A stretch of DNA of 64,000 nt from Spirulina sp. (GCA_044070495.1 JBIPSI010000021.1:26833-90832), one strand, 5' to 3'; shown: positions 4,022-64,000, numbered from the stretch's first letter. Made by a program: numbers and translations. The notes: a model not told the origin generated them from the letters alone.

Positions 4022-4076
4022 ATCGTTCATCTCTAGCTTTAGAGACGGAAGTAGAGCTTAGCTCGAAGGAACGCGC
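4022..4076 (+). ncRNA. Glutamine riboswitch (glnA RNA motif)
   Basis: ATCGTTCA-[stem]-GACGGAAGTA-[GAGC/GCTC stem]-GAAGGAACGCGC matches the glnA motif; upstream of a DUF4278 gene. Confidence 0.9.
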
Positions 4077-4117
4077 CTCTGTTTATCCCCTTCAATTCAT
4101 TTAAGGAGAGGCGAATT

Positions 4118-10682: not shown

Positions 10683-12317
10683 TCAGGGGGTATTGATCAG
10701 GGGGTAGATCTGACTCAAGTTAAGTTCTCCCATGGCAATGGGTTCAGGGAAAGAGAACTGGTTGAGAATTTTGGGGTGAACTTCGCCAAACTCGCCAATG
10801 GTTTGCCCATTCATCTGCACCAGGGCCGACCGTCCTGGAATGTAGTAGGGGCTGTGACCTTCAGTAAGATCGTAGGTAACCCCCAAGGCCCGCAGCAGGG
10901 TTTGCAGGTAGGCCTTGGCCGTGGAAAAGGACGCCCTGGCATTGAGGCTGGCAAAGCCCCAGGACTGGGATTCTTCGCCCTGTCCATCGGCGGCGAGGCG
11001 GAGAATTTCCCCGGTTTCGTAGAGGTTGATGGGTTTGGGGGCATTGATGTTGCAGGATAGAACCTCCAGAAGCCCGACCTGGAGTGTGGTGCGGGTGGCG
11101 CTGTAGGCACGGCTTTTGGCGTTGCTGGTTTGTAAGTAGTGTTCAGAAAACAGGGCCAACAGGGTGGGATCGGTGAGGACATGGCCCTTCACCTCCATTA
11201 GCCCCAAGCGCTGGGACACATCGCACACCCGAAACACAAACTGGCGTAGTCCATCGGCCTCGCCCAGGTGAAACTTCACCGACAGCGGTTCTGGCTGAAA
11301 GCTATCAATCCCCAGGGCTACCATCAAATCTCCAGCCAAATCTACCTGGCTGATCAGGTCGGTGCGGTAGGTGGGCACATAGACCTCGTTCGTGCCGCTG
11401 ACCACCAGATCCATGCGCCCCAACACCTGGCCCAGCTTGGCCTTAGGAATGGCCGACCCCATGATTTCATTCAAAAACCGCGCCGAAAAGGACACGGCAC
11501 GCCGATCTAGGCTAGGGGTAACCTGCGATCCGGCGGGGGTAACCACGGTGACGGTCTGCACCTCGGCCCCAGTGTCTAAAAAATTATGGGCCAGAATATT
11601 AATGGTTTCCTGCACCGTGCGATCTAAAATGCCCGTGACATCGATAAACAGGTTGCGGGTGTCGGCGGAAATCTCCCCCACGCCAGCGGCGTTAATGATC
11701 GGCGGCAGCGAGAGCACCTGCCCCTGGGCATCGCGCAGCACGGGCACGGTGTCTCCCTCCGGCAGGGTAGAGCCATAGAGCTTACCAGCGGGGTGGTGGG
11801 CCAGCAGATTGACGGCGGTGAGGGGGGCCGTTTCCCCTAGGGGCACAAAGGTAACGTCGGTTTTGGCCTGGGCCGTGTAGGTGAGGGGGCCAACGATGCG
11901 ATCCAGGTCGTAGACCCCAATGGCGATCTTTTTGCGTTGGCGACCAAAGGTTTGGGTCACCTTCTCCTGAAACTGAATCAACACCTCCAGTCCGCCATCC
12001 CGAAGATGGGCCTGCCGCACCACCAACGCCGCCAGGTGAGGCCGTAATCCTAAAACTGACGGATCCACGGTGACCCGATAGCCCGAATCGGCTAGGGTTT
12101 CGGGCACAGTGCGGGGTTGCCCACCATAGATATTCATCGCCCGAATAAAGCCCTCGGCGGATAAGAGGTCGGGCCGTTCGGCGGTTACCTCCACCTCTAG
12201 GTTGTCCTCCCGCAGGGTGACTTCTAGGCCGTAGTCAAAGGCCTGTCGTTCAAGCTGGGCCAGGGGTGTTTGGGTGAGCTGCTGAAGGTAAGACAGGGGA
12301 AACGTTACCGTGGGCAT
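10683..12317 (-). CDS. pheT: Phenylalanine-tRNA ligase beta subunit-like protein, short archaeal/eukaryotic type (544 aa)
   Basis: MPTV...RPDLLSAEG, IQFQEK..GRQRKKIAIGVYDLD, LSLPPIIN, NLFIDVTG, GEFGEVHPKIL; no bacterial B2 OB-fold or B8 anticodon-binding domain. Confidence 0.8.
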   Translation of the reverse strand: MPTVTFPLSYLQQLTQTPLAQLERQAFDYGLEVTLREDNLEVEVTAERPDLLSAEGFIRAMNIYGGQPRTVPETLADSGYRVTVDPSVLGLRPHLAALVVRQAHLRDGGLEVLIQFQEKVTQTFGRQRKKIAIGVYDLDRIVGPLTYTAQAKTDVTFVPLGETAPLTAVNLLAHHPAGKLYGSTLPEGDTVPVLRDAQGQVLSLPPIINAAGVGEISADTRNLFIDVTGILDRTVQETINILAHNFLDTGAEVQTVTVVTPAGSQVTPSLDRRAVSFSARFLNEIMGSAIPKAKLGQVLGRMDLVVSGTNEVYVPTYRTDLISQVDLAGDLMVALGIDSFQPEPLSVKFHLGEADGLRQFVFRVCDVSQRLGLMEVKGHVLTDPTLLALFSEHYLQTSNAKSRAYSATRTTLQVGLLEVLSCNINAPKPINLYETGEILRLAADGQGEESQSWGFASLNARASFSTAKAYLQTLLRALGVTYDLTEGHSPYYIPGRSALVQMNGQTIGEFGEVHPKILNQFSFPEPIAMGELNLSQIYPLINTP

Positions 12318-12520
12318 GGGCCAAGGAGAATAGACAAACTCAGGGGCGTCGCGCAACGCGAGGGGCTATTGAAGCCGAATCAAGGCACGATCACAATGTT
12401 ATGAACGCAGAATCGAAGCACAACCGAAGCACACTATATCCTATCTGGCCCTAGCCTCAGCCAAGGCCCTAGCCGCGCCGCCCCACACCATTCCCTGGGG
12501 GTGTGAGATAATGGCCTGCC

Positions 12521-13498
12521 ATGATGCCTAGATCCCCAGCCCAGCCCTCAAATCTGCTGATTAAGCTCAGCCGCCGCCTGTTCGACCAAGCGGAACAACA
12601 GTCTGCCTTTGTGGAAGCCCTCACCTCGCCCCCAACCTTTCCCCAGGCCATTCTGTGGACTCAGCCCCGCCCGTCGGAGGTGCCCTTTGACCTTGCCCCC
12701 GCCTTGCCCTGGCAGCCGCCCGCTGTGGATCGCCTCTGGCCCGACCAGCGCCCTGGACAGCATCCCCTACACCAGGCGGGGGCCTACTACTGCCTAGACA
12801 TGGCCTCGGTCTTTGCGGCGGCGGTGTTGAACGCGATCCCAACCTCGGTTGATCTGGTGCTGGATATGTGTGCGGCACCGGGGGGCAAAAGTTTGCTGGC
12901 CCGTCAGCAGCTCCGGCCCAAACAGCTTTGGTGCAATGAAGTCATCCGTAAGCGGGTCAGAATCCTCATCGCCAACCTCAAACGCTGTGGGGCCATGGAG
13001 AGCCTAGTGTTCAACCTAGACCCGAAAATTTGGGCTGAACATCTACCCCAAGCCGCCTCGGTGGTGATTGTGGATGCCCCCTGTAGTGGCCAATCCCTCC
13101 TCGCTAAGGGCGATCAAGCCTTGGGTTGTTTCCATCCGATCACCATCAAGAAAAACGCCAGTCGCCAAAAACGCATTCTGGGCCAAGCCGCCCAAACCGT
13201 GGCTGGGGGCGGCTACCTTGCCTACATGACCTGCACCTTCTCCCCGGAGGAAAACGAACAGGTGGCGGCGTGGTTGCTGAAGCACTTTCCCCAGTTTGAG
13301 GCGGTGCCCGTTCCCCTCCTCGCCGACCATCAGTCGCCCTTGGCCGAGTTTCCCTGCTATCGGCTGTGGCCCCAAATGGGCCTAGGGGCTGGAGGGTTTA
13401 CGGTACTCTTCCGCAACCGAGATCTCCACCACTACCCCGCCACGCTCCCCGATGCCCTCGCCACCTACACCCTGCACCTTTATGCAGACCAGGAGTGA
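12521..13498 (+). CDS. RsmB/RsmF (NOL1/NOP2/Sun) RNA m5C methyltransferase
   Basis: DMCAAPGGKS, VDAPCSG, TCTFSPEENE. Confidence 0.92.
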   Translation: MMPRSPAQPSNLLIKLSRRLFDQAEQQSAFVEALTSPPTFPQAILWTQPRPSEVPFDLAPALPWQPPAVDRLWPDQRPGQHPLHQAGAYYCLDMASVFAAAVLNAIPTSVDLVLDMCAAPGGKSLLARQQLRPKQLWCNEVIRKRVRILIANLKRCGAMESLVFNLDPKIWAEHLPQAASVVIVDAPCSGQSLLAKGDQALGCFHPITIKKNASRQKRILGQAAQTVAGGGYLAYMTCTFSPEENEQVAAWLLKHFPQFEAVPVPLLADHQSPLAEFPCYRLWPQMGLGAGGFTVLFRNRDLHHYPATLPDALATYTLHLYADQE

Positions 13499-15070: not shown

Positions 15071-16780
15071 CTAAAACAGGAAATACCGCTGGGCCATGGG
15101 CAGCACGTCGGCGGGTTCGCAGGTCAGCAGTTGACCGTCGGCGCGGACTTCGTAGGTTTCGGGGTTCACCTCCATGTGGGGTTGGTAGGTGTTGAGCTTC
15201 ATGTCGGCCTTGCTGAGGTTGCGGCAGTTGACCACCGCAGGGGCGGCTTTGGTGAGGCCAATTTGGGCAGGGATTCCCAATTCCAAGGCCGCTTTAGACA
15301 CAAAGGTCAACGACGTAGCGGCTACCGCACCGCCAAAGCTGCCGAACATAGGCCGCATGTGGACGGGCTGCGGGGTGGGGATGCTGGCGTTGGGGTCGCC
15401 CATTTGCGCCCAGGCAATCGCGCCGCCTTTGATGACGATTTCGGGTTTGACGCCGAAAAAAGCGGGTTTCCACAGGCAAATATCCGCCAGCTTACCCGCT
15501 TCGATGGAACCCACATGGTCGGCAATGCCGTGGGTGATGGCGGGGTTGATGGTGTATTTGGCCACGTAGCGCTTGGCTCGGTGGTTGTCGTTGCGGTCAG
15601 AATCTTCCGCCAGTGGCCCCCGCTGCACCTTCATTTTGTGGGCGGTCTGCCAGGTGCGGATGATCACCTCACCCACCCGCCCCATGGCCTGGGAGTCGGA
15701 GGCAATCATACTAAAGGCCCCCAGGTCATGGAGGATGTCTTCTGCGGCGATGGTTTCGCGACGAATGCGGGACTCGGCAAAGGCAATGTCTTCGGGAATG
15801 CTGGGGCTGAGGTGGTGGCAGACCATCAGCATATCCAGGTGTTCGTCCAGGGTGTTGCGGGTGTAGGGGCGGGTGGGGTTGGTGGAGGAGGGCAGCACGT
15901 TGGCTTCGCCACAGACCTTGATAATGTCGGGCGCGTGGCCACCCCCAGCCCCCTCGGTGTGGTAGGTGTGAATCACCCGATTTTTGAAGGCGGCGATGGT
16001 GTCCTCCACAAAGCCCGCTTCGTTGAGGGTGTCGGTGTGGATGGCGACCTGGATATCGTACTCATCGGCGACGGCCAAGCAGGTGTCGATGGTGGCGGGG
16101 GTCGTGCCCCAGTCCTCATGGAGCTTGAGGCCCATGGCCCCAGCCTTCACCTGCTCCACCAGAGCCTCCGGTAGGGCACTGTTGCCCTTGCCCATAAAGC
16201 CCAGGTTCATGGGGAAGGCTTCCGCCGCTTGCAGCATCCGCCACATATTCCAGGCCCCAGGGGTGCAGGTGGTGGCATTCGTCCCCGTGGCTGGCCCAGT
16301 GCCGCCGCCGATCATGGTGGTGACGCCGGAGGCAATGGCGGTTTCGATCTGCTGAGGGCAAATGAAGTGGATGTGGGTGTCGATGCCGCCAGCGGTGACG
16401 ATCATGCCCTCGCCTGCGACGACCTCGGTACCAGGGCCAAGGATGATATCGACGTTGTCTTGGATGTAGGGGTTCCCCGCCTTACCAATTTTGTGAATTT
16501 TGCCGTCTTTAATGCCAATGTCGGCCTTAACGATGCCCCACCAGTCCAAAATCAGCGCATTGGTAATCACCATGTCCACGGCCCCGGCCTCGCGCCCAAT
16601 GGGAGACTGGCCCATGCCATCGCGGATCACCTTGCCACCGCCAAATTTCACCTCGTCCCCGTAGGTCGTGAAATCCTGCTCTACCTCAATGATCAGTTCT
16701 GTATCGGCTAAGCGGATGCGGTCGCCCACTGTAGGGCCAAAGGTTTCCGCATAGGCGCGGCGATCCATGCGATAGCTCAT
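15071..16780 (-). CDS. ureC: Urease subunit alpha
   Basis: [39 protein letters not shown] at 16780, 569 aa. Confidence 0.97.
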
Positions 16781-32537: not shown

Positions 32538-32914
32538 GGAAGGAGTTGGCGAGGTGGTTGCGGGTTGGCTACGGCTGGCCTGAGGAAAGTCCGGGCTCCC
32601 GAAAGACCAGACTTGCTGGGTAACGCCCAGTGCGGGTGACCGTGAGGAGAGTGCCACAGAAACATACCGCCGATGGCCTTGGGGTGTCTCCAGGCACAGG
32701 TAAGGGTGCAAGGGTGCGGTAAGAGCGCACCAGCAGCATCGAGAGGTGCTGGCTCGGTAAACCCCGGTTGGGAGCAAGGTCGAAGGGGCAAGGGTTGGTC
32801 TTTTTCCTGTCCCGTCTTTGCGTACCGCATGAGGCGGCTGGTAACAGTCGTCCCAGATAGATAACCGCCCCCCGGCAACGGGGAACAGAACCCGGCTTAT
32901 GTCCGACTCCTTCC
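32538..32914 (+). ncRNA. rnpB: RNase P RNA (class A)
   Basis: GAGGAAAGTCCGGGCT, AGTGCCACAGAAA, AGAACCCGGCTTA; P1 stem GGAAGGAGTTGG/CCGACTCCTTCC. Confidence 0.97.
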
Positions 32915-43361: not shown

Positions 43362-44198
43362 ATGACCGACCTATTTGCCCATCGCGTGGTCGTCCTTGCC
43401 ACCATGCACCGCAAAGAGCAGGCCATCGCCCCCCTCATCGAACGGCACCTGGGCCTCACCGTCACCGTGCCCGCTGGGTTTGATACCGACAGCTTTGGCA
43501 CCTTCACCGGCGAAGTCAAGCGCCCCGCCGATCAGCTTTCCACCGCCCGCCTTAAGGCCGAAGCCGCCCTAGAACGCACCGGGGAAACCCTAGCCATTGC
43601 CAGCGAAGGAAGTTTTGGGCCACATCCCCACCTTCCCTTTGTGCCCTGCAATCGCGAGCTGGTGGTGCTGATTGACCGTCAGTATGGCTTAGAAATCGTG
43701 GGCGAATGTCTCTCTACCGAGACCAACTATCGACAGCAGTCCGTTCAGAATGTTCAAGCAGCAGAAGCCTTTGCCGCCGCCGTAGACTTTCCCCGCCACG
43801 GGTTAATCGTTCGCGCCAACGGCACCGTCATCGCCAAGGGCATCACCACGGAATCGGCATTATCGACAGCGGTAGAAACCGCCCTACGCCAAGCCGCCAC
43901 GGTGCAACTCGAAACCGACATGCGCGCCCTCTACAACCCAACCCGCATGGCCGTCATTACCCAAGCTACAGAGGACTTGCTGCGGGCCATCGCCAAAACC
44001 TGCCCCGCCTGCAATTGTCCCGGCTTTCGGGAGGTAAAACGCTGGCCGGGGCTACCCTGCGCTCTGTGCGGCACCCCCACCTTGCTCACAGCCCGAATTC
44101 GCCACCAGTGCCAGCGCTGCGATCACACCCAGGACAACCCTCCCGCCGACCTCCCAGCCAAGGCCGACCCCAGCTATTGCCCCTACTGCAACCCTTAA
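43362..44198 (+). CDS. DUF6671-like protein with Cys-rich C-terminus
   Basis: LATMHRKEQAIAP, DTDSFGTFTGE, ASEGSFGPHP, ETDMRA; four CxxC motifs. Confidence 0.75.
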   Translation: MTDLFAHRVVVLATMHRKEQAIAPLIERHLGLTVTVPAGFDTDSFGTFTGEVKRPADQLSTARLKAEAALERTGETLAIASEGSFGPHPHLPFVPCNRELVVLIDRQYGLEIVGECLSTETNYRQQSVQNVQAAEAFAAAVDFPRHGLIVRANGTVIAKGITTESALSTAVETALRQAATVQLETDMRALYNPTRMAVITQATEDLLRAIAKTCPACNCPGFREVKRWPGLPCALCGTPTLLTARIRHQCQRCDHTQDNPPADLPAKADPSYCPYCNP

Positions 44199-44218
44199 GA
44201 GTGCAGCAAAACAGAACG

Positions 44219-44368
44219 CCTGATGGTCTGACACCTCTCCAAAGTAGATTGGGTGGCGCGATAGCAAAACCCAACAAGTCCGAAATCCTCGGTGTGTGTT
44301 GGGTTCCGCTTCACTGCACCCAACCTACTAAAGATCAGGGCTTTTGGGGATTGTGTCAGTCAGCTAGG
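44219..44368. repeat. ~150-bp REPIN/MITE-like element, copy 2
   Basis: Same GTAG inverted core and same flanks as 33684-33833. Confidence 0.8.
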
Positions 44369-44390
44369 AGAAGGCTTAATGATCCACTGC

Positions 44391-45224
44391 TTAATGATCT
44401 AGGGAAGGCTGACGGTGCCGCTGATAAAGAACAAATCCCGCTAACGCCATGGCCGCCGCCGATAAAATATGCACCACATTAAAGGGGGTGCCAGGGAAAA
44501 ACCAGGAGTCCGTGCGAAGAAATTCAATGAAGAAACGGCCTAAGGGATACCAGACCAGGTAGCCTAAGGCCAAGTCTCCGGGCTTAAGTTGCTTTTCAAA
44601 CTTGCGAGCGATCCAAAACAAAAGGGCAAACCCTACTAAGTTCCAAACCGACTCATACAAAAAGAGAGGATGGAACCGAGTCGATTCTGGATATTGGGCC
44701 AAATTATTGTAGGGCGGAATGCGATGTTGGGCATCAATGCGTAAACCCCAAGGTAACGTTGTCGGAGGGCCGTAGAGTTCCTGATTAATAAAGTTTCCCC
44801 AGCGACCGATGGCTTGGGCTAAGGGTAATCCTAAGGCGATACCGTCTAGGTAAGGCAGTGGATTGAGCTTGCGAATACGGCTGAACAGAAATAGCGCAAT
44901 GGCCCCAAAGATAAACCCACCGAAAATGTGAATGCCGCCACCCCAAACCTGCAAGATTTTGCCGGGATTCGCCAGATAATAGCCCAACCCCTCCGGCCCC
45001 CGTGGGGACTGAATGAACACGTAATACAACCGCGCCCCAATGAAGCCTGGAATTAAGATCCAGAACAGCATATCCCACAGGTTATCGGGGTCTTCACCTT
45101 GGCGGGCTACATAGCGACTGGCCACCGTTGCGGCGGATAAAATGGCCATCAACATCAACAGCCCATACCAGCGCAGGGCAAAGGGGCCAAGTTCAAAAAT
45201 AATCGGGGAAACAGGGGGATACAT
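44391..45224 (-). CDS. lgt: Prolipoprotein diacylglyceryl transferase
   Basis: LRWYGL, GARLYYV, QAIGRWGNFINQELYG, HPLFLYES. Confidence 0.95.
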   Translation of the reverse strand: MYPPVSPIIFELGPFALRWYGLLMLMAILSAATVASRYVARQGEDPDNLWDMLFWILIPGFIGARLYYVFIQSPRGPEGLGYYLANPGKILQVWGGGIHIFGGFIFGAIALFLFSRIRKLNPLPYLDGIALGLPLAQAIGRWGNFINQELYGPPTTLPWGLRIDAQHRIPPYNNLAQYPESTRFHPLFLYESVWNLVGFALLFWIARKFEKQLKPGDLALGYLVWYPLGRFFIEFLRTDSWFFPGTPFNVVHILSAAAMALAGFVLYQRHRQPSLDH

Positions 45225-45266
45225 GGGCAGGTTAAATATACAATCTGAGCATCTGAAACACAGCAT

Positions 45267-45707
45267 CTATTCTGGCAAAAAGTCTCTGGCTAGGGTTTGT
45301 TCTGGAGTAAATGGGCTGTTTTCAGGGAGTTTTTCCAAGTCTAGTCCAGTTTCGGTAGCGGCCAAGTCTCTAGCCTCAACGTAGCATTCGTCGAATTTTT
45401 GAAGAAAGTAGTCTTTTAGGCTGGGGCTAGTCTTGAGCAATTCGTGAATCTGGCGACGGTGTTCTTTGAGGGTAAATCGCCAGCTATTGGAACGTTTTTG
45501 GGGTTGGTAGGCGTATTTCAAAAGATGTATCAGAACCACAATTATATTGGTGGTTAAGGCTCGTTTTTCGCTACGCCCCATGTCGCTCAGTTCTTCCAGT
45601 AAGTTAGACAAATCTAGATCTGTAAATCGTTGTTCTGCCAGTTGTTGACAGGTCGCCTCTAACCAGAGCGCATAATCCTGGTCATATAAGTCTTTAAGTG
45701 TTTTCAT
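45267..45707 (-). CDS. DUF29 family protein
   Basis: LYDQDYALW, EELSDMGRSEK, HLLKYAYQP, SPSLK. Confidence 0.9.
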   Translation of the reverse strand: MKTLKDLYDQDYALWLEATCQQLAEQRFTDLDLSNLLEELSDMGRSEKRALTTNIIVVLIHLLKYAYQPQKRSNSWRFTLKEHRRQIHELLKTSPSLKDYFLQKFDECYVEARDLAATETGLDLEKLPENSPFTPEQTLARDFLPE

Positions 45708-45755
45708 TGTCAGCAAAGTAAATGATGAACATAGGAGTTAGCATAGAAATTTGAT

Positions 45756-46184
45756 CTAGATAAATGAATTAATAATAGTCAATACGTCATTGACTATTAG
45801 CCCATGATTCATATCTTCTGTGTAGAAAAGTGAGCATTGGGATTGAATGGCTGTACTGACAAGCATAGAATCCCAAAATGATATGTTGTAGCGTTGTCTT
45901 ATGCTAGATGCTTCCAAAAGAAGCACTTCATCCATTATTGGACAGACTGTATAGGTTCGATAGAACGACTTAACCAGTTTCTGAATATCCGGTTCAGTAA
46001 AATTGAACTTTCTGACTAAGTTGTAAGAAACTTCGTTAATCACCTGCACAGAGAGGACAGGTTGCATTTGATTGATCAGGGTTCTTGCTATTTCATGGCG
46101 AGGGTCAGGGGGAATATCTTCAGATTGAGTGGCTGCATAAATCCAGACGTTAGAATCAATGAAGCAACGCTTAGCCTCGATCAT
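45756..46184 (-). CDS. PIN-domain (VapC-like) toxin
   Basis: FIDSNVWIY, SVQVINE, SFWDSML, YTEDM; lower GC than flanks. Confidence 0.88.
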   Translation of the reverse strand: MIEAKRCFIDSNVWIYAATQSEDIPPDPRHEIARTLINQMQPVLSVQVINEVSYNLVRKFNFTEPDIQKLVKSFYRTYTVCPIMDEVLLLEASSIRQRYNISFWDSMLVSTAIQSQCSLFYTEDMNHGLIVNDVLTIINSFI

Positions 46185-54947: not shown

Positions 54948-56129
54948 TTAGCTGTGGATGGACGGAGCCACAAACTGCTTATCCCAGATTTGAGGCCGAT
55001 CCTCAAGGCTGACATAGCCCTGCTGCCGTGGCCCGGTATAGATTTGGGTGGGCCGGAAGATGCGGTTTTCGCCCAGTTGCTCCTTCCAGTGGGCCAGCCA
55101 ACCCGCCACCCGCGCAATGGCAAAGACGGGGGTGAACAGATCGACAGGAATGCCCAGTTTGCGATAGACCAAGCCGGAGTAGAAGTCTACGTTAGGGTAA
55201 ATGCCCTTATGGCCCAGCCGTTCGGATACGGCCTGCTCCATTTCGAGAGCGATGGCGTAGTACTCATCTTGGCCAAATTTTTCAAACAGTTGCTCAGCCA
55301 GCCCTTGCAGGATGGTGGCGCGGGGGTCTTTGACCTTGTAGACCCGGTGGCCAAAGCCCATAATTTTAGACTTTTCAGCGATGCAGCGATCCACAAAGGG
55401 GCGCACGTTTTCGACCGATCCAATCTGCTGGAGCATGTCGATCACCTCTTCATTGGCCCCACCGTGGAGCGGCCCCGCCAGGGTGCCTACCGCCGAGGCC
55501 ACCACCGCGTAGGGATCGGTGAGGGTGGAGGCGGTGACCATGGCCGAAAAGGTGGAGGCGTTGATGGTGTGTTCGGCGTGGAGGGTAAGGCACACATCAA
55601 AAATACGGGCCGCTAGGGGATCGGGCTCGCGTTCACTGAGCATGTAGAGGAAGTTGGCCGCATAGTCAAGGTCGTCACGGGGCTGTACCGGGTCGTTTCC
55701 CTTGCGAATGAGCTGAAAGGCCGCCACCATCGTGGGAATTTTGGCCAGCAATCGCACCACAGCCTTCTGAATGTAAACCGGGTTGTCTAAGGCTCGACGG
55801 GAGTAAAACAAACCTAGCGCCGCCGCACAGGCCTGTAGGGCATCCATGGGGTGCCCACTCTCCGGGAAGCACTTCATCATGTCGCGAATGCGGTATTTGA
55901 GGCGGCGATGGTAGCGAATTTCATACTCAAAGGCATCCAGTTCGCTCTTGGAGGGCAGTCCACCCCAAATCAGCAGGTAGGCCGTTTCTAAAAACGTACT
56001 ATGCTGGGCCAGATCTTCAATACGAATGCCCCGATACTCCAGAATGCCCGTCTGTCCATCCACGTAGCTAATGCTCGACTGGGTGGCCGGTACCCCTTCT
56101 AGGCCAGGTCTATACTCACATACGGTCAT
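54948..56129 (-). CDS. gltA: Citrate synthase
   Basis: HAEHTINASTF, GPLHGGANE, GFGHRVYK, PNVDFYSG. Confidence 0.96.
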   Translation of the reverse strand: MTVCEYRPGLEGVPATQSSISYVDGQTGILEYRGIRIEDLAQHSTFLETAYLLIWGGLPSKSELDAFEYEIRYHRRLKYRIRDMMKCFPESGHPMDALQACAAALGLFYSRRALDNPVYIQKAVVRLLAKIPTMVAAFQLIRKGNDPVQPRDDLDYAANFLYMLSEREPDPLAARIFDVCLTLHAEHTINASTFSAMVTASTLTDPYAVVASAVGTLAGPLHGGANEEVIDMLQQIGSVENVRPFVDRCIAEKSKIMGFGHRVYKVKDPRATILQGLAEQLFEKFGQDEYYAIALEMEQAVSERLGHKGIYPNVDFYSGLVYRKLGIPVDLFTPVFAIARVAGWLAHWKEQLGENRIFRPTQIYTGPRQQGYVSLEDRPQIWDKQFVAPSIHS

Positions 56130-56576
56130 AGGTTCACTGCTCCCAATCGCTGATTCATGATTTCAACGGGGGTCAACACTCCGCCGTTATCCACGCTACC
56201 AAACGTCGTATTCCCCCTGGGCAAGCCCCGATCCCTAGAATCGTGGCCTGTTTCCAATCATTTCAATCAAATTACACCATGGCGGGGCAACTCTCGGAGA
56301 CCTTGGCTCCACGGGCGATCCCCAGAACCAATCCTGGGGAAGGCTACTCACCGCCGCCGGCTCGCCACTGAACGCCCTGGATAGATGTAGCGGTTCTCGC
56401 TGCAGTGAGATACACCCTGGCTGGGGTCTAGATCCCCCCAGTGCCTAGCTGCCTAAACAGGTTTACCCGGTACCTCCCTGATTAGGGGGGCAGGGGTATC
56501 ATCGCCACGCACTTCACCCGAGGGAAATCGGCCATGGGAAATCAGCTATGGATGTAATACCTAAATGCAAAAAAAT

Positions 56577-56609
56577 GCAAAAAGGCTCTGAACATAAAGC
56601 TCAGAGCCT
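56577..56609 (-). terminator. Intrinsic terminator downstream of tRNA-Glu
   Basis: AGGCTCTGA/TCAGAGCCT stem with a T-tract on the minus strand. Confidence 0.8.
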
Positions 56610-56617
56610 CCTTAATA

Positions 56618-56690
56618 TACCCCCAGGGGAATTCGAATCCCCGTCGCCTCCGTGAAAGGGAGGTGTCCTAGGCCTCTAGACGATGGGGGC
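56618..56690 (-). tRNA. trnE: tRNA-Glu(UUC)
   Basis: GCCCCCATCGTCTAGAGGCCTAGGACACCTCCCTTTCACGGAGGCGACGGGGATTCGAATTCCCCTGGGGGTA; CCA not encoded. Confidence 0.97.
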
Positions 56691-56872
56691 CTGTGTTTTT
56701 CGACAATTCTCAGTATAGGGAAGGGAAATGCGCTTGTCAAACATCTCCCCAAAAAATCTTTAGGCGGAGGGGTAGGACGGAGATCGCCCCAGGAACAGGG
56801 GCTTTGAGACAACCGAGGGGGAAGCCTCGTCCTCGATAGGGCCTGAGAGCCAATGTCCTGGCTAGGGGATTC

Positions 56873-57145
56873 CTAGAGGGGAGGCAGGTTGCGAAGACGA
56901 ATGAGCTGACGCCGCATCAGGGGAGAGGCCGCCACCTCGTCGATGGCCGCCACCTTAACCTGTGACTCAACTGCCTCGACAAACTCATCACTCCCGTAGG
57001 AGAAGGCGTCGATCAGCAGTTCTAGCAGGTGATCACGGTTATTCATCACCTGATCCTCCTCGATCAGCCGAAACTTCAGCGTGACCTCGCATTCATAAAC
57101 GCCGACTTGGGAGGGAATAGGAGAATGGGATGCAGAAGTAGCCAT
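56873..57145 (-). CDS. Npun_R1517-family small protein
   Basis: VGVYECEVTLKFRLIEE...ASPLMRRQLIRLRN. Confidence 0.75.
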   Translation of the reverse strand: MATSASHSPIPSQVGVYECEVTLKFRLIEEDQVMNNRDHLLELLIDAFSYGSDEFVEAVESQVKVAAIDEVAASPLMRRQLIRLRNLPPL

Positions 57146-57974
57146 ATAGCAACGTTGAGTCTGAAAGGATCTAGGGGAAATGGCAATCCTAGGCAAAGTC
57201 ATGGGGCTTAGAGGGGGCACCGGAGGTCTCCAAGCTAGGATCGCCACAGCAAGGAGAGCTACCTACACAAGCCTTTGCCAATCACGGATAGCACGAACCC
57301 GTATATCCCTAGGGGCGAAGGAAATACATCGTTCGGCACGGCCTGTCTCTATCAAACCAAAGAACGGATTGAAGCACCCTAAAACATCTTTTTTTTTACA
57401 GGATTAATACAGTTTTGTAATGCTAGATTAAACCTGCGGAAATGTCCGTAATCATGCCTATAAGGATTCTATTTTTTATACTCAAACCTCGCTTCGATAG
57501 CAAAGCATAAGCCTGGAAAATTGACTTGTGCCTGATTTCCAAGAAGCCCATTAAACGACCATGCAACGCTCTATCAGCTACATCAGGGTTCTGTCAAACG
57601 TGGTGTCGCTAGCGTTGATATACACCGGTCATCAGGCCTGAGTCTCCCATAGGGGCTTAACTTATCCAAGCGATACTCCGCTATCCAGGGCTTAGTTTAT
57701 CCTTGGCATTCAGAGACAATAGTCTTCGTTGCCAACGCCCTCAGTTCTGGGAATCTGATAGGCCAGATCGCCGTCAATTCTGACCTTTATTACTCCAAAG
57801 CGGTCGGCGGTCTTGTTCAGCATGATGTTAGTCGGGTTGTAATTTAACCCTGGCCACCTTGGGATTGGTATTTTGCCAGGTCTTCTGCGGTCAGTCGCGA
57901 CAATAACGGTGACTAAGATCGGAAAGGTCATGGAGCGGGTCTCTGTTTGGTGAGGTACATATTTACTTGGCTCA

Positions 57975-58104
57975 GAGGACGTTTGAAAAGGGTTGCCTCA
58001 GGGGTGATTGGTCGCTAGATCGGTTAAATTTACGGGGTTTTTAACGGCTGAGGCTGACCTCAGAGGGATAACTTAGGACACGATTCGGTGTTTCAAACGT
58101 CCTC
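57975..58104. mobile_element. IS5-family MITE (130 bp)
   Basis: Perfect 14-bp TIR GAGGACGTTTGAAA/TTTCAAACGTCCTC; TSD TCA on both sides. Confidence 0.9.
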
Positions 58105-58448
58105 TCAGGATGCTCCTAGTTTTTTCCTGTTTAAGGTTCAACCTGTGCTTCACTCTTGACTATGGGGATAGTGGGGTTGTTCGCGACGTACTGCATTCGA
58201 GTAAAATCTGCCCCATTGAATGCGTACCTTAGAGTCGAAGACTTTTCTGAGTTTTGCAGGATTACCACAGATTCTCCATACTTGCCAAGGGGGAATATAC
58301 CAGGCTGGACAAATGATTTTTAGAGCTTGGCTTCTAACTCTAATAAGATTTGTGTTTTCCCAGGCGCTTCTTAAAATGAAATGTTTCCATGGGGATAGAG
58401 TCTCGCTGGGAAAATACCTTAACGACATAACCCAGTGATGGAGGTGAA

Positions 58449-60833
58449 ATGAGTAATTCTTTGATTCCAATATCTGACGATCAAGATTTTGACGTAGTTA
58501 CACAAGATCATCTATTGGGAGTTTTATCGGAAGCGCTTTCAGGGGTTAAGGAGAGTCTTTTTAAGGTCTCACAAGATAATAGCTTTTATGGTCTTCTAGG
58601 TCAGGCCTTTGAAGGTAAAGATCTATCTGGCATCGGTACGCTTTTAGCTGAAGATTCTATGCCATGGCCCACCATTGACATTCGCTCCACAACCGAGATT
58701 AACGGAGCTTTGGGAGCTTTCTCTGAGGCAACTAGCACCATTTATCTATCCTCTGAGTTGCTTTTGCAGCAGTGGCGGACAGGATTGGTCTCTTCCCTGA
58801 TTCAGTCGGTTTTGTTGGAGGAATTTGGTCATTATTTAGACTCAGTTTTAGGCGATGGGGATAGCCCAGGTGATGAGGGCAAAATTTTCGCTAATCTCGT
58901 GCAAGGCGTCACAATCTCTGGGCAAGAGTTGATATCGCTTAAGGGAGAAGTCGATACAGCGACGGTGCAGATTGATAACCAGGCTATCGTGATTGAGCAA
59001 GCCACCCTCAGCGGCCCTTCGGCGGAAGAGGTGGAAATGCTGGAACTGATCAACCGGATGCGAACGAATCCCCAGGGGGAACTGCCGCTGCTGATCAATT
59101 CCACCGATGCCAACGTGAACTCAGCCCTCACCTTCTTTAAGGTAGATCGCACGGTTTTGGCGACTCAGTGGAGTCTTTTGTCTCCGGTTCAGCCCATAGC
59201 CTGGTCTGATCAATTGGGGCTCTCGGCGGCAACCCACTCTGAACTGATGATTCAGTACGATAGCCAGAGCCATAATTTGCCGGGAGAGCCTACCCTAGGC
59301 CAACGCATTTTGAACGCAGGCTATAGCTATAGCTCCGTTGCCGAAAACATTTACGCCTTTGGTAAATCTACCTTTCATACCCATGCAGCTTTCGCGGTAG
59401 ATTGGGGCAATACCTCCACCGGCATTCAAAATCCCCCCGGACACCGTAATGCGATTATGAGCCCGGGCTATCGGGAAGTGGGCCTAGGCGTGGTTCCTGA
59501 TAATAACCCCGGCACCAACGTTGGCCCACTGGTGGTGACCCAGCATTTTGGCAACCGATTCGCGCTGGGCGGCAAAGCTTGGCTGTTGGGGGTGACGTTT
59601 CAAGATCAAGATGGTGATGCGTTCTATGACGTTGGCGAAGGCGTCGGCGGCATTACCGTTAACGTCCTAAATACCGCCAATGCGGCCCTGAGTTATTCCA
59701 CCTTCTCTAGAACGGCGGGGGACTACCAGATTTTGCTTGACCCAGGTAATTACCAGGTCAGCTTCCTTCAAGGGGGCACCCTGCTGCGCACGGAGGCGGT
59801 GTCCATTAGCCCAACGAATCCGGTGAATGTCAAGCTAGACCTAAAATCCCTGGCACCCGCGCCACCACCAGCACCGCCTTCCATCCTATCCCTCCAGCGT
59901 TGGGGCACTCGGCAGGGCGGATTTTGGGACAGCCAGCGATGGATTGTGGGCGATTTTAACGGGGATAACCGGGCGGATCTGGCTAAAGTCTTCAGCGAAT
60001 TTGGTCTGGGTAGTGTGGATGCCCACCTATCGAGTGGATCGGGTTTTGCTATCCAGCGCTGGGCTACCCAGCAGGGGGGCTTTTGGGATGCTCAAAAGTG
60101 GCTGAGTGGTGATTTTAATGGCGATGGAAAAACCGATCTTGTGAAGGTTTTTAGTGAATACGGCCTAGGCAGTGCGGATGTGCATCTGTCTAATGGGGCC
60201 GGGTTTGCCATGCAGCGTTGGGGCACCCAGCAGGGGGGCTTTTGGGATAGCCAAAAATGGTTGGCAGGCGACTTCAACGGCGATGGAAAAGCCGATCTTC
60301 TCAAGGTGTTTAATGATGTTGGGATGGGTAGCGTCGATGTTCACCTGTCCAATGGTGCAGGTTTTGCTATCCAGCGCTGGGGCACTCGGCAGGGAGCCTT
60401 TTGGGATGCCCAAAAATGGATTGTGGGCGATTTTAATGGCGATGGACGGGACGACTTGGCCAAGGTATTTAATGACAATGGCCTCAGCAGTATTGATGTT
60501 CACCTATCTAGCGGGACGGGGTTTGTGATGCAGCGCTGGGGCACCCAACAGGGGGCATTTTGGGATGCCCAAAAATGGATTGTAGGCGATTTTAACGGCG
60601 ATAATCGGACCGACCTAGCCAAGGTTTTTAATGACAATGGTGCAGCGACTATTGACGTTCACTTGTCGAACGGATCTGGGTTTGCCATGCAGCGCTGGGC
60701 TACCCAGCAGGGCAGTTTCTGGGATGGTCAAAAGTGGCTAGCCGGTGACTTCAATGGCAATGGGAATGATGAACTGGCGAAGGTTTTTGGCGATGGGGGC
60801 CTCAGTAGTATTGACCTTCACCGGTTGGTCTGA
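58449..60833 (+). CDS. Multidomain surface-type protein: LEExGH N-domain, CAP (SCP) domain, beta-sandwich, six FG-GAP-like repeats
   Basis: LELINRMR..HSELM..AENI..GHRNAIM..EVGLG..TQHFG (CAP); QRWGTQQGGFWD..W..GDFNGDG..DL repeated six times. Confidence 0.85.
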   Translation: MSNSLIPISDDQDFDVVTQDHLLGVLSEALSGVKESLFKVSQDNSFYGLLGQAFEGKDLSGIGTLLAEDSMPWPTIDIRSTTEINGALGAFSEATSTIYLSSELLLQQWRTGLVSSLIQSVLLEEFGHYLDSVLGDGDSPGDEGKIFANLVQGVTISGQELISLKGEVDTATVQIDNQAIVIEQATLSGPSAEEVEMLELINRMRTNPQGELPLLINSTDANVNSALTFFKVDRTVLATQWSLLSPVQPIAWSDQLGLSAATHSELMIQYDSQSHNLPGEPTLGQRILNAGYSYSSVAENIYAFGKSTFHTHAAFAVDWGNTSTGIQNPPGHRNAIMSPGYREVGLGVVPDNNPGTNVGPLVVTQHFGNRFALGGKAWLLGVTFQDQDGDAFYDVGEGVGGITVNVLNTANAALSYSTFSRTAGDYQILLDPGNYQVSFLQGGTLLRTEAVSISPTNPVNVKLDLKSLAPAPPPAPPSILSLQRWGTRQGGFWDSQRWIVGDFNGDNRADLAKVFSEFGLGSVDAHLSSGSGFAIQRWATQQGGFWDAQKWLSGDFNGDGKTDLVKVFSEYGLGSADVHLSNGAGFAMQRWGTQQGGFWDSQKWLAGDFNGDGKADLLKVFNDVGMGSVDVHLSNGAGFAIQRWGTRQGAFWDAQKWIVGDFNGDGRDDLAKVFNDNGLSSIDVHLSSGTGFVMQRWGTQQGAFWDAQKWIVGDFNGDNRTDLAKVFNDNGAATIDVHLSNGSGFAMQRWATQQGSFWDGQKWLAGDFNGNGNDELAKVFGDGGLSSIDLHRLV

Positions 60834-60919
60834 TAGTAAATCCACCTCCCATAACCCCAAAACGCCAAGCCACAGGCGTGAAAGAAGGTTGACTTTCTAG
60901 GCCGGGTACTGGTCTGTTA

Positions 60920-61047
60920 GAGGACGTTTGAAAAGGGATCCCCTGTAGCTTTAGGCACTCGCCGATCCCCCTAAATCCCCCTTTCTAAGGGGGATTTAGG
61001 GGGATCGCCACCATTGCTACAGGCAACAGGACTTTTCAAACATCCTC
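60920..61047. mobile_element. IS5-family MITE (128 bp) with an internal long hairpin
   Basis: TIR GAGGACGTTTGAAAAG/CTTTTCAAACATCCTC; TSD TTA; internal GATCCCCCTAAATCCCCCT..AGGGGGATTTAGGGGGATC. Confidence 0.9.
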
Positions 61048-61094
61048 TTAAACAGATACTAAATTCACCCCACCTTTCGTGACAACCAACATTT

Positions 61095-63860
61095 CTAACG
61101 TTTGATAACACCTAGATAATTAGCCATGAGCTGCACGACCATTTCGGAATGAGGGGCAAGAGCTGGTAGGTAAAGCGAGATCGCCCCCTCAACCGCTGCT
61201 TTCAACTCTTCCCAGGATTGCGTATTGTGGCGAATGAAAGGTTCTAGTTTTTTGATGAGCTCATAATTGCTATCAATATCGCTAGCAACCATGGCTTTTT
61301 CCAGGGCGGGTAGATTGGTTGTCTTTTCAAATTCTGGTAAGACGCGGCTGACGAAGGTGACGCGATGCATGACTCGCCAGCAGGGGGGCTTTTTATCCGT
61401 TTGCTGAGCTTGCCGTAGGGCGATTGCGTTGGGATGTTGCCCCTGGCTTAACCAGATGGGGTCAACCACTTTGTTGAAAAATTCATCAAAGTTGCTGTTT
61501 CGTGGCTCCAGGTAGAAGCTCATAAAGCGATAGGCATCGACTTTGCCCGGTTTCTTTTTCGGTTGCGGGTTCAGCTGATCGCTTAAGTCCATAATCAAGT
61601 TGCCGTCAGCATCCTGTAATGAAAGATCCCCTTCCACGTCGAGTTCCACGTTCATGCCAAACGACGTTTCAGAATCTTTGCTCTTGGTCACCGTCAGATT
61701 GCGGTGACCACCAAACATCGCCTGAAGCTCAAAGCCGACTGCGGCTTTAGAAATGGCAATCTCTGCCGATAACGTTAGTCCTGCCATGCCCGTAAAGGAA
61801 TAGGAACCCCCGGTCACTTCCTGCTGAACATCCATCGTTTCGTTAGACTCGGCGAAGAGCCCACCATCGGCTGTCCAAACGTAGGTATTGACCAGATTGC
61901 GCTTAGCCAGGTTGGGTAGCGATGGATCTTTTTCCGAGCGTCCCCTATCTCCTGCATCAAACTGATCAAAATAGGCTTGCAGTTCTTCCTCTTCTCGCTG
62001 AATTGCCTGCTTCAAGCTATAGGCTTCGATCGGCTTGAAATAACTGATATTGGGGCTATAGGTTTTCGCATTGGGATAGTTGGGATCAACATCGTTACCG
62101 ACTTTGCCATCCAGCACCCCCTGCTTGGTATAGCGAGGGTTAATGGGAAACGTGATGATGTTCCAATCTTTGGGGATATCGGGATTAGGACGCATTTGGT
62201 AAGAAACCAGCGCGTTATTATGCCGCAGGCGCAAAGCGAAAATATCTGCCGTTTCCGACTGGACGAGGGCAAAGCCCACATTCAATGGGACGAAGCGTTT
62301 GCCCAGATCAGCATACTGGGCCTCGTTTTCCCAAAAGCCCTGCATCGTCATGGAACTGACTTTTGAAGTCGTCTTGCCGGTACCGGTGCTGGCATCATCA
62401 AGCCAACCCCGCGAATTTTCAAAACTGGCCGCTACCCCCACTTGCACGTCGGATTCCTCAAGGCTGGTGGCTAAGCCCAGGCCCGCATCGGTGTGGGACT
62501 TAAACCCGACTTGAGCCGATGTCGCAACGGACATATCGAAGCCTTTGTCTTTGGACGATGAATAGGTGTAAGTGGTGCTTTGGGCTTGGGTTAGCTCAAT
62601 TTTGCTGGCTCCAGCATAGTCTTGCCCTAGGGCCGCACTGCGGGCCGTCAGATTTTCGCTAGGTACCGGGGGAGCCCCTTCAATAAAGCCAATCAGTTGA
62701 GGATCGGTTTGCACCTGGCCAATCCACTCGGTGACCAGGCTACCCACCTTAAAGCCGGTGAGCAAATGCCACTGCTGGTCTTTGATGTAGCTATAGCAAC
62801 GCTTGAGGACACCGACCAAGTTGCCCGCGCTATCAACCTCTAGATCGCCGTATTCTTGCACCCCCGGCTGACTGTGAATGACATCTTGAAAAGCGGTTTT
62901 GACCCCAGCCAGAGCACTGCGCACCTGGGCAATATCACTACTGATGGGGGCAGTAGATAGGGCAAAAGTGTTCATGGGGTCGGGGCAATTCACCAGGGTC
63001 AGATGCTGACCCCGCAAAGATTGATCTTTGATCTCAGTCTTACTCTCGGCATCAAAGGTGTAGTAAGCAATCAGGTCATCGCGATCGCCCAACAGACGAG
63101 TAAACAGGTTATCGGTAATTTGCTCTTGGGTGCGGGCCACTTTCCAGATGCGGGTTTCTTCGATAAGCCCTTTAAAGCAGTCCGTCGGCTGCTGATTGCG
63201 TACCACCGCGCCTAGAGTAAATTGAGGACTCCCGCCCTCTGTTCCGGGGGCGGGATAATCTTCGGTTTGTAGGGGTTCGCCATTGGCGTAGAGGGTCAAG
63301 GGCGAGGCTTGTGGGCTGGGATCTTTAGCCCACTGACAGCCTGATTTGAGGGTGGCATGGTTGGTACTCTTGGCATCGGTGGCGATGTTGCCCGCGTTTT
63401 CAGTAAATTGCCACCAAGATACTAACCCCGATTCTGAGCCTTTAATTTCTCTGCCGATATCGGCAGATTTGCGGGCCGCACTCCAGAGGCGAACTTCGCT
63501 AATGATGCCAGCAAACGGTATTATCTGTGAGGTACCCATATCATTTCCGACATAGCTACGGCCAATTTCCAATGGTTGGGAGTTGCTGCCGACGTCAGGT
63601 TTGTCTTTGTGAGTGTAGGAACCCACTTCTTTTTGGTTGATGTAAAGCTTAATCGCCAGCCATTTCTGAATATTGACCCCGGTCACCTGACCGTCTTTGT
63701 CTTTAGTGGGGTCTACTTGGGTGTGCTGTTCACGGGTTACTGCGACTTTACAAAACTCGTTAGCGCGAACGGATGTGGTAGACACAAAAGACTGATTGGT
63801 GTGTTCGGTATCTTCAAACTCAAACTTAACTTTGCCGTCGCGGGTGAGGTAAAGCGAGTA
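61095..63860 (-). pseudogene. 3' part of a large LamG-repeat protein gene interrupted by IS5
   Basis: LamG motifs FAGIISEVRLW, FKGLIEETRIW, LVSWWQF; the frame stays open to YSLYLTRDGKVKFEFED right at the IS end. Confidence 0.8.
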
Positions 63861-63861
63861 A

Positions 63862-64000
63862 GAGGATATTTAAAAACACGGAGATGAGGTATTAAACCCC
63901 TCACGCGAGCCTCCGTAGCATGATGCGAATCATGGCGATGTGAATGAAGGCCTCCGAGGATTCGGGTAAGCGCTCGTAATCGACATTGAGGCGACGACAC
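63862..64000 (-). mobile_element. Right end of an IS5-family element (transposase C-terminus, stop at 63901)
   Basis: Minus frame CRRLNVDYERLPESSEAFIHIAMIRIMLRRLA*; TIR GAGGATATTTAAAAA next to a TAA target. Confidence 0.9.

Follow-up and report, generated by a model that had tools for sequence, protein, structure and literature searches.

In the 64,000-nucleotide stretch of Spirulina sp. DNA analysed here (GCA_044070495.1, JBIPSI010000021.1:26833-90832; the window, in what follows), the minus-strand gene at positions 10683 to 12317 encodes the beta subunit (PheT) of an archaeal/eukaryotic-type phenylalanyl-tRNA synthetase (PheRS). We regard it as likely that this protein serves as the beta subunit in a second PheRS, which was taken up as a pheS-pheT pair and kept beside the bacterial PheRS. 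The gene belongs to the archaeal-type family and keeps its editing residues, an archaeal-type alpha gene (pheS) co-occurs with it in the lineage, the bacterial enzyme coexists with it, and it is under purifying selection. That the archaeal-type PheRS is enzymatically active is what we infer from these features.

Family, domains and editing residues of the archaeal-type PheT

The open reading frame (ORF) found by ORF search and translation on the minus strand extends from a TTG at 12356 to position 10683, and an ATG at 12317 within it yields a protein of 544 amino acids (aa). Since the N terminus is MPTVTFPL in all ten orthologues examined, we take this ATG as the start codon. The elements identified in the gene are the following:

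10683..12317, minus strand: coding sequence for aPheT, the beta subunit of the archaeal-type PheRS, with 544 codons and a stop (ORF, translation, TIGR00471)
12120..12212, minus strand: B1 domain match, aa 36-66 (Pfam PF18262, 23.5 bits, under the gathering score of 26.8)
11604..11969, minus strand: B3/B4 editing domain match, aa 117-238 (Pfam PF03483, 26.2 bits, slightly under the gathering score of 29.3)
11691..11714, minus strand: LSLPPIIN, aa 202-209, with the editing residues S203 and N209 (aligned to Pyrococcus horikoshii S211 and N217)
11631..11648, minus strand: FIDVTG, aa 224-229, with the editing residues D226 and T228 (aligned to P. horikoshii D234 and T236)
11310..11492, minus strand: B5 domain match, aa 276-336 (Pfam PF03484, 40.4 bits, over the gathering score of 28.6)
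11328..11366, minus strand: B5 motif RTDLISQVDLAGD, aa 318-330, whose canonical Glu is replaced by Gly329 (translation, alignment)
10716..11246, minus strand: B6/B7 catalytic-like module (CLM), aa 358-534, including G370R and F433Y (Pfam PF17759, 102.9 bits)

An initial annotation of this DNA had called an archaeal/eukaryotic-type PheT of 544 aa and had proposed scoring it against the two family models, which agree with that call: the protein reaches 345.6 bits with TIGR00471 (pheT_arch; cut-off, 282.65), residues 1 to 536 corresponding to model positions 1 to 549 of 551, and 114.5 bits with TIGR00472 (pheT_bact; cut-off, 402.65), where only model positions 400 to 692 are matched. The closest solved relatives are human FARSB (3l4g_B, E 4.3e-47) and the beta fragment of P. 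horikoshii (2cxi_A, E 4.4e-44). The domain order given by Pfam is B1-B3/4-B5-B6/7, without B2 (OB-fold) and B8; the absence of these two domains had also been noticed at the outset, and indeed neither tRNA_bind (OB-fold) nor FDX-ACB (B8) was matched in the protein at E<=0.1.

In the FastTree phylogeny, cyanobacterial sequences, four metagenome proteins and the locus L075 are grouped in a single clade (64 rows; SH-like support, 100%). For the residue comparison, 123 members of the clade were set against 139 canonical archaeal-type PheT sequences. The motifs IQFQEK, GRQR, LSLPPIIN and FIDVTG, which the initial annotation had listed as those of an intact B3/B4 domain, are all present in the translation. 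In the alignment, five residues of the B3/B4 pocket are identical to those of 2cxi_A (P. horikoshii L202, S211, N217, D234 and T236). L202, S211, D234 and T236 are residues that we take to line the editing pocket, and work of Sasaki and colleagues from 2006 reportedly dealt with the roles of D234 and T236 in editing. The editing residues are retained in 117 to 123 of the 123 clade members: N209 is found in 123/123 (and in 139/139 canonical sequences), D226 in 122/123 and T228 in 117/123. The counterpart of N209, Asn217 of P. horikoshii, is given a role in editing in the available text of PMC3275996. Furthermore, B3/B4 is the domain nearest to canonical archaeal-type PheT, with a mean identity of 0.36 versus 0.26-0.27 in the other domains.

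Across the whole protein, the canonical set has 59 columns with a conservation of 85% or more, of which the clade members retain 55; the remaining four are changed in a fixed manner throughout the clade, namely, P144 to D or N, E329G, G370R and F433Y. The Glu-to-Gly replacement in the B5 motif RTDLISQVDLAGD, already pointed out in the initial annotation, is present in the translation, and both solved archaeal/eukaryotic sequences have Glu at this position; Gly329 occurs in 122/123 clade members, and Glu in 90% of the 139 canonical sequences. The acidic residues D320, D326 and D330 of B5 are present, so that with Gly at position 329 the four-acid pattern R-x-D-x5-D-x2-E-(D/E) is incomplete; following the UniProt/HAMAP annotation, we assume these acidic residues to be ligands of a Mg ion shared with the alpha subunit. 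G370R (122/123) and F433Y (123/123) affect CLM positions that are nearly invariant in the canonical proteins. Compared with the canonical sequences closest to it, the beta subunit also lacks five residues after B5.

The archaeal-type alpha subunit and the coexisting bacterial PheRS

No pheS lies inside the window, as the initial annotation had remarked for the surroundings of the gene. The related loci give a different picture of the beta subunit's company. Sixty-five loci from named genomes were considered, comprising 61 assigned to cyanobacteria or to an uncultured bacterium, two archaeal ones, one labelled Rhizobium and one 99-aa fragment. In several of them, an ORF only distantly PheS-like is located on the same strand directly upstream of the beta gene, and NF003210 identifies it as an archaeal-type PheS (390 and 429 bits; cut-off, 350). 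Such a pheS adjoins pheT on its upstream side in L028, L029, L030, L031, L049, L068, L075, L082 and L084 and lies about 1 kb upstream of it in L048, making ten linked loci; in both archaeal loci, pheS is likewise adjacent to pheT. For ten of the remaining loci, the upstream sequence is too short to judge linkage.

In the genus of the window, the alpha gene is present but unlinked. A search of all 53 genomes of the genus showed that, of the 52 other than the one under study, 47 have a long archaeal-type pheS match with 69-76% identity, never near the beta gene, which is itself found in 51 of these 52. Pieces of archaeal-type pheS cut by contig ends occur in G045 and G059, and none was found in three other genomes of the genus, which are 69-86% complete. 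The same co-occurrence is seen at the level of the class, where, among 401 evenly drawn genomes, 18 carry beta, 17 carry alpha and 16 carry both; a single subunit is found only in the genome under study, in G059, where a contig end truncates alpha, and in G173 (85% complete). Of the 41 family codes, four include carriers. In the alpha subunit, class II motifs 2 and 3, together with the TEPS and GNSG stretches of the substrate pocket, are identical to those of human FARSA (E 2.3e-78). The alpha match of one genome, G405, contains one TAG.

An archaeal-type alpha gene that co-occurs with the beta gene, and often adjoins it, indicates that the beta subunit is one half of a complete second PheRS. 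Of the two roles that the initial annotation had put forward, half of an archaeal-type PheRS is thus the one borne out by the lineage, pheS being adjacent in ten loci and present without linkage in 47 of the 52 other genomes of the genus. The other role, a paralogue repurposed as an alpha-independent trans-editor and marked by the Glu-to-Gly change, does not hold for the lineage, which has the alpha subunit: the Gly-Asp pair ("GD") at B5 is found in 8/8 linked and 52/52 unlinked loci examined (60/60). As Gly329 is present in all eight linked loci, the replacement is no marker of a life without alpha, and it must have arisen while the alpha gene stood next door. Only in the genome of the window, in whose assembly an archaeal-type alpha was not found, might the beta subunit still be a stand-alone trans-editor.

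The resident bacterial enzyme has not been displaced. The genome of the window holds a full bacterial pheT on contig C14 (TIGR00472, 759.5 bits) and one full-length bacterial pheS, of 333 aa, on contig C11; the archaeal-type gene is therefore not its only pheT. A sole pheT paired with an archaeal-type pheS is what the initial annotation had considered as the sign of a replacement, and the second, bacterial pheT that it had advised looking for does exist. A bacterial-type pheT match, in frames of about 810 to 980 aa, was obtained in 38 of 41 relatives sampled (G030 among the carriers), two others having only short pieces of it and G011 having no match; in five further carriers, the bacterial pheT is full-length in four and partial in one. 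Bacterial pheS was found in 41/41 relatives sampled. Since the bacterial PheRS is retained, the archaeal-type PheRS represents an added second enzyme and not a replacement. We also considered whether the second enzyme is explained by a degeneration of the editing site of the bacterial PheT and discarded this idea, for the bacterial PheT of this genome aligns over its full length to the solved ones and its B5 is intact; the stretches that we take to be its editing motifs are intact as well.

With regard to the origin of the pair, the linked arrangement occupies basal branches of the clade in the FastTree tree, and the Nodosilinea crown and the Prochlorotrichaceae are unlinked. This distribution is most simply read as the entry of the pair in the form of an operon, followed by a later separation of the two genes. 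The nearest named archaea are DPANN metagenome-assembled genomes (MAGs), with 28-34% identity to the beta subunit, and the horizontal acquisition of an archaeal-type PheT, suggested in the initial annotation, is supported. One linked pair, L075, is held by a contig labelled as a MAG of Rhizobium sp. Q54 with a G+C content of 42%; the products of its other ORFs share 47-72% identity with proteins of the cyanobacterium studied here, so it is probably a misbinned cyanobacterial contig.

As judged from their substitution patterns, both archaeal-type subunits are under purifying selection, with omega at about 0.1. For eight pairs, values range from 0.055 to 0.13, and the comparison of this genome with its nearest relative, G067, gives 0.111. 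At the same time, the rate of change of the archaeal-type subunits is about threefold that of the bacterial pair, as the following comparisons illustrate:

this genome versus G005: archaeal-type beta 84%, bacterial beta 95%, bacterial alpha 99.7% identical
this genome versus G023: archaeal-type beta 69%, bacterial beta 81%, bacterial alpha 89% identical

The bacterial PheS is 99.7% identical between contig C11 of this genome (G000) and its counterparts on C2 of G005 and C193 of G019, whereas the archaeal-type beta is only 84% identical. Purifying selection combined with a faster change than that of the bacterial pair fits an accessory enzyme.

On this basis, the following course of events can be proposed. 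A cyanobacterial ancestor would have acquired an archaeal-type PheRS as a pheS-pheT pair, and the enzyme would have been retained in several filamentous lineages, namely, Nodosilinea and its kin, the Prochlorotrichaceae and the Oculatellaceae/Elainellales. The beta subunit and the archaeal-type alpha would assemble into an enzyme of (alpha-beta)2 composition. This enzyme would charge tRNA-Phe, and its B3/B4 site would hydrolyse Tyr-tRNA-Phe. In the genus of the window, the two genes would then have become unlinked, and the assembly at hand holds beta only.

Absence of the alpha gene from this assembly

Some of our results weigh against this reading. The archaeal-type pheS was not found in this assembly (97% complete, 74 contigs) with TIGR00468, NF003210, two protein queries or tblastn/blastn at E<=10, and tblastn and blastn at E<=10 gave no remnant of it in the genome either, so that the beta subunit may here be without a cognate partner. 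The Gly in B5, together with G370R and F433Y in the CLM, means that canonical behaviour cannot be taken for granted. Moreover, the trees are quick ones, made with FastTree only and with long branches flagged, and among the public runs listed as holding the gene there is no RNA run.

If the alpha gene has really been lost, the beta subunit would be a true orphan, deacylating mischarged tRNA-Phe in trans or serving as a hybrid partner of the bacterial alpha. We consider this unlikely, even though several observations are in line with it besides the missing pheS. The sequences that flank pheS in G005 and G019 map in this genome to mid-contig positions, on C9 and C31; in G067, the nearest relative, pheS is found on a 9-kb contig in another context, and this assembly has no stretch orthologous to that contig. 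The beta gene shows no decay, with an omega of 0.111 and 13 lineage-specific replacements versus 22 in G067. However, precisely because pheS of G067 stands in a different context, the synteny test with the flanks of G005 and G019 cannot decide between a loss and a gap. Furthermore, ARAGORN found only 36 tRNA genes in the assembly (tRNA-Ile and tRNA-Ala(TGC), for example, were not found), which marks it as incomplete in places and draft- or MAG-like and bears on the missing alpha. The public runs X1 and X2 point in the same direction: they contain the beta region of the window in a form about 97% identical (35% of the 31-letter words sampled) and also a contig with an archaeal-type pheS that is 87-88% identical to that of G067. 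The beta genes of this genome and of G067 are 88.4% identical, that is, at the same distance as the pheS of X1 and X2 from the pheS of G067. An alpha at a distance matching that of beta suggests that the lineage probably still has its alpha gene. Between a true loss and an assembly gap, the chances appear roughly even, with some leaning towards the gap.

A structural model brings in the possible pairing with the bacterial subunit. The complex predicted for the beta subunit and the genome's own bacterial PheS scored 0.76, the best of three controls scoring 0.00; the model runs agree in at least 85% of the contacts, and the pLDDT of the partner is at least 87. Among 157 solved complexes, 116 reach the same mark, and so do 2 of 215 mismatched pairs; this calibration is rough only, custom alignments having been used here. 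In the model, residues 323-333 of the B5 motif, Gly329 included, are placed at the alpha/beta interface, and residue 329 touches alpha residues 260-262. The result counts in favour of an orphan that works as a hybrid partner, but PheRS alpha-beta complexes have already been solved, and the pass may reflect mere likeness to them. Such a hybrid would, in addition, be devoid of both the bacterial B8 anticodon-binding domain and the N-terminal domains of the archaeal alpha, whose roles are described in the available text of PMC3275996. A broader version of the idea, in which the two PheRS cross-talk in one cytoplasm, the archaeal-type beta pairing also with the bacterial alpha and serving in this genome as hybrid partner or trans-editor, and in which the second enzyme would be a quality-control specialist, for example, against meta-tyrosine (m-Tyr), seems doubtful to us.

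Alternatively, the gene could be a functionless leftover, its decay just starting after a recent loss of alpha in this genome, in agreement with the missing pheS. Loss of the system does seem to occur: in Chamaesiphon polymorphus (L082, 1308-3675), both archaeal-type frames end early, giving an alpha of 372 aa and a beta of 399 aa, a finding that may reflect either decay of the copy or an error in the sequence. In the window, however, the frame is intact, and the 55 retained canonical positions read as in the rest of the clade, save for a Leu in place of Ile at position 171. The omega of 0.111 equals that of pairs in which both genomes carry alpha, and the private replacements are fewer (13) than those of the alpha-carrying G067 (22). 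A decaying gene is accordingly very improbable, and we maintain as the preferred reading that of a beta subunit belonging to a second PheRS.

Genomic context, possible role and comparison with known systems

The neighbours of the beta gene in the window are an ABC-2 permease, a Crp-type regulator and an RsmB/F-like methyltransferase; the last one, a member of the RsmB/F family of RNA m5C methyltransferases, is encoded at 12521-13498 on the plus strand, divergently from beta (Pfam PF01189, 95.3 bits). As operon partners they were rejected, because they stand beside beta in 0/11 relatives and the context varies between subgroups. Since the neighbourhood is not conserved, no functional partner follows from it. 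Other contexts recur within subgroups of the related loci:

L020 5885-10033, with the same stretch in L021, L022, L025, L026 and L027: beta gene between a Dps/ferritin-like gene and SPFH/Band-7 plus glyoxalase-family genes, in the main Nodosilinea group and not in the window
L030 1403-3371, L031 2695-4444 and L068 2402-4384: ClpS, a DUF2103 protein and a Trm1-type tRNA m2,2G methyltransferase, on the same strand and just upstream of pheS-pheT, in three marine loci
L111 2064-6154, and also L114, L101 and L109: archaeal-type pheS beside a CHASE3-GAF histidine kinase, a hybrid kinase and a single-domain response regulator

Trm1 was examined as a candidate partner and treated as a coincidence, a copy being unlinked in this genome and the control search in Synechococcus elongatus giving a match as well. 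As to the kinases and regulators, their clustering near pheS may be a matter of shared domains and not of orthology.

The proximity of pheS to histidine-kinase and response-regulator genes in several genomes of the Nodosilinea group is one of the observations that would suit a recruitment of the archaeal-type pair to a new function, for example the charging of a different amino acid or a regulation tied to the two-component neighbours. The clade-wide changes at four otherwise conserved beta positions would suit it too, as would the threefold faster change relative to the bacterial pair (beta 84% versus 95%, with the bacterial alpha at 99.7%). Against this, the alpha subunit scores above the curated PheS equivalog cut-off, its motif 2, motif 3, TEPS and GNSG stretches are identical to those of human FARSA, and the beta editing residues are retained. 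A dedicated tRNA is not in evidence either: in 12 loci, no additional tRNA gene stands close to the archaeal-type pair, and only one tRNA-Phe is encoded by this genome. We hold such a recruitment to be extremely unlikely.

As to why a second enzyme is kept, the neighbours of beta (Dps/ferritin-like, Band-7 and glyoxalase-family genes) and of alpha (the kinase and response regulators) in the main Nodosilinea group offer faint pointers at most. No RNA leader or riboswitch was found near the archaeal-type genes at Rfam gathering scores in the window and six loci, no promoter-like site was found in their vicinity and terminator-like sites occur at chance level; a biosynthetic cluster was not found near them in the related loci.

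In the available text of PMC3275996, human cytosolic PheRS, an enzyme of the archaeal/eukaryotic type, is described as binding m-Tyr about ten-fold less well than bacterial PheRS and as not hydrolysing m-Tyr-tRNA-Phe, and a 2025 study (PMC12525003) has reported that cyanobacteria are hypersensitive to m-Tyr through their PheRS. That the second PheRS helps in coping with oxidised phenylalanine is a speculation, although a testable one. More generally, it might be guessed that two enzymes are kept because the accessory one differs in its amino-acid discrimination or in its behaviour under stress.

In comparison with the archaeal/eukaryotic-type PheRS beta subunits (FARSB, P. horikoshii), the protein shares the domain order, the TIGR00471 score, the editing residues and 55 of 59 conserved columns, but it differs in E329G, G370R, F433Y and P144D/N, in the deletion after B5 and in residing in a bacterial host with a PheRS of its own. 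A precedent for the transfer is offered by the spirochaetes (Spirochaeta, Borrelia and Treponema), in which, as far as the available text of PMC3191353 goes, both archaeal PheRS subunits were transferred, inherited and replaced the bacterial form. There, as here, both subunits came from Archaea into a bacterial lineage and were inherited within it; in the cyanobacteria, by contrast, both PheRS forms coexist, and in the genus of the window, the archaeal-type genes are unlinked. The presence of two synthetases for one amino acid recalls the duplicated threonyl-tRNA synthetase (ThrRS) of cyanobacteria, since in Anabaena the two ThrRS form mixed oligomers under zinc limitation, according to passages of PMC4787780, and mixed oligomers are conceivable here in the light of the model of beta with the bacterial alpha. 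Different from Anabaena, the two PheRS stem from different domains of life and consist of two subunits each.

The role type proposed in the initial annotation corresponds to that of CtdA, a free-standing B3/B4 deacylase which acts in trans on mischarged tRNA and for which the available text of PMC12449066 draws a comparison solely with the B3/B4 editing domain of PheRS. The B3/B4 editing fold is common to both, but CtdA consists of that fold alone, whereas the protein of the window is a full beta subunit of 544 aa with B1, B5 and CLM, and its lineage has a cognate alpha. A CtdA-like free-standing B3/B4 protein is ruled out by this full architecture, B5 and CLM included.

What appears to be new here is the occurrence of this known type of enzyme in another group of hosts, alongside the resident PheRS and with four conserved positions changed throughout the clade. 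Public records name these proteins merely PheRS alpha and beta, and the literature searched (including passages of PMC3191353, PMC9437257, PMC4787780 and PMC5388404) contains no mention of an archaeal-type PheRS in cyanobacteria, which the supplementary tables of two large surveys of aminoacyl-tRNA synthetases may nevertheless list. A whole clade keeps both PheRS under purifying selection, which raises the questions of what the job of the second one is and how the four subunits avoid mis-pairing. There is also a lesson for annotation, in that a lone archaeal-type pheT calls for a genome-wide search for alpha before the label "stand-alone" is applied. Among the carriers, Leptolyngbya sp. BL0902 has a complete genome and is genetically tractable, and Nodosilinea nodulosa PCC 7104 is another carrier in culture.

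Apart from the PheT gene, Rfam matches reaching the gathering score in the window comprise a bacterial RNase P RNA of class A (32542-32914, plus strand), a glutamine riboswitch (4022-4077, plus strand), a tRNA (56618-56690, minus strand) and a "5_ureB_sRNA" match (16339-16625, plus strand), which overlaps a minus-strand ORF of 589 aa. The G+C content drops to 0.48 at 44001-46000 and is about 0.50-0.52 at 56001-64000, compared with about 0.58 elsewhere in the window.

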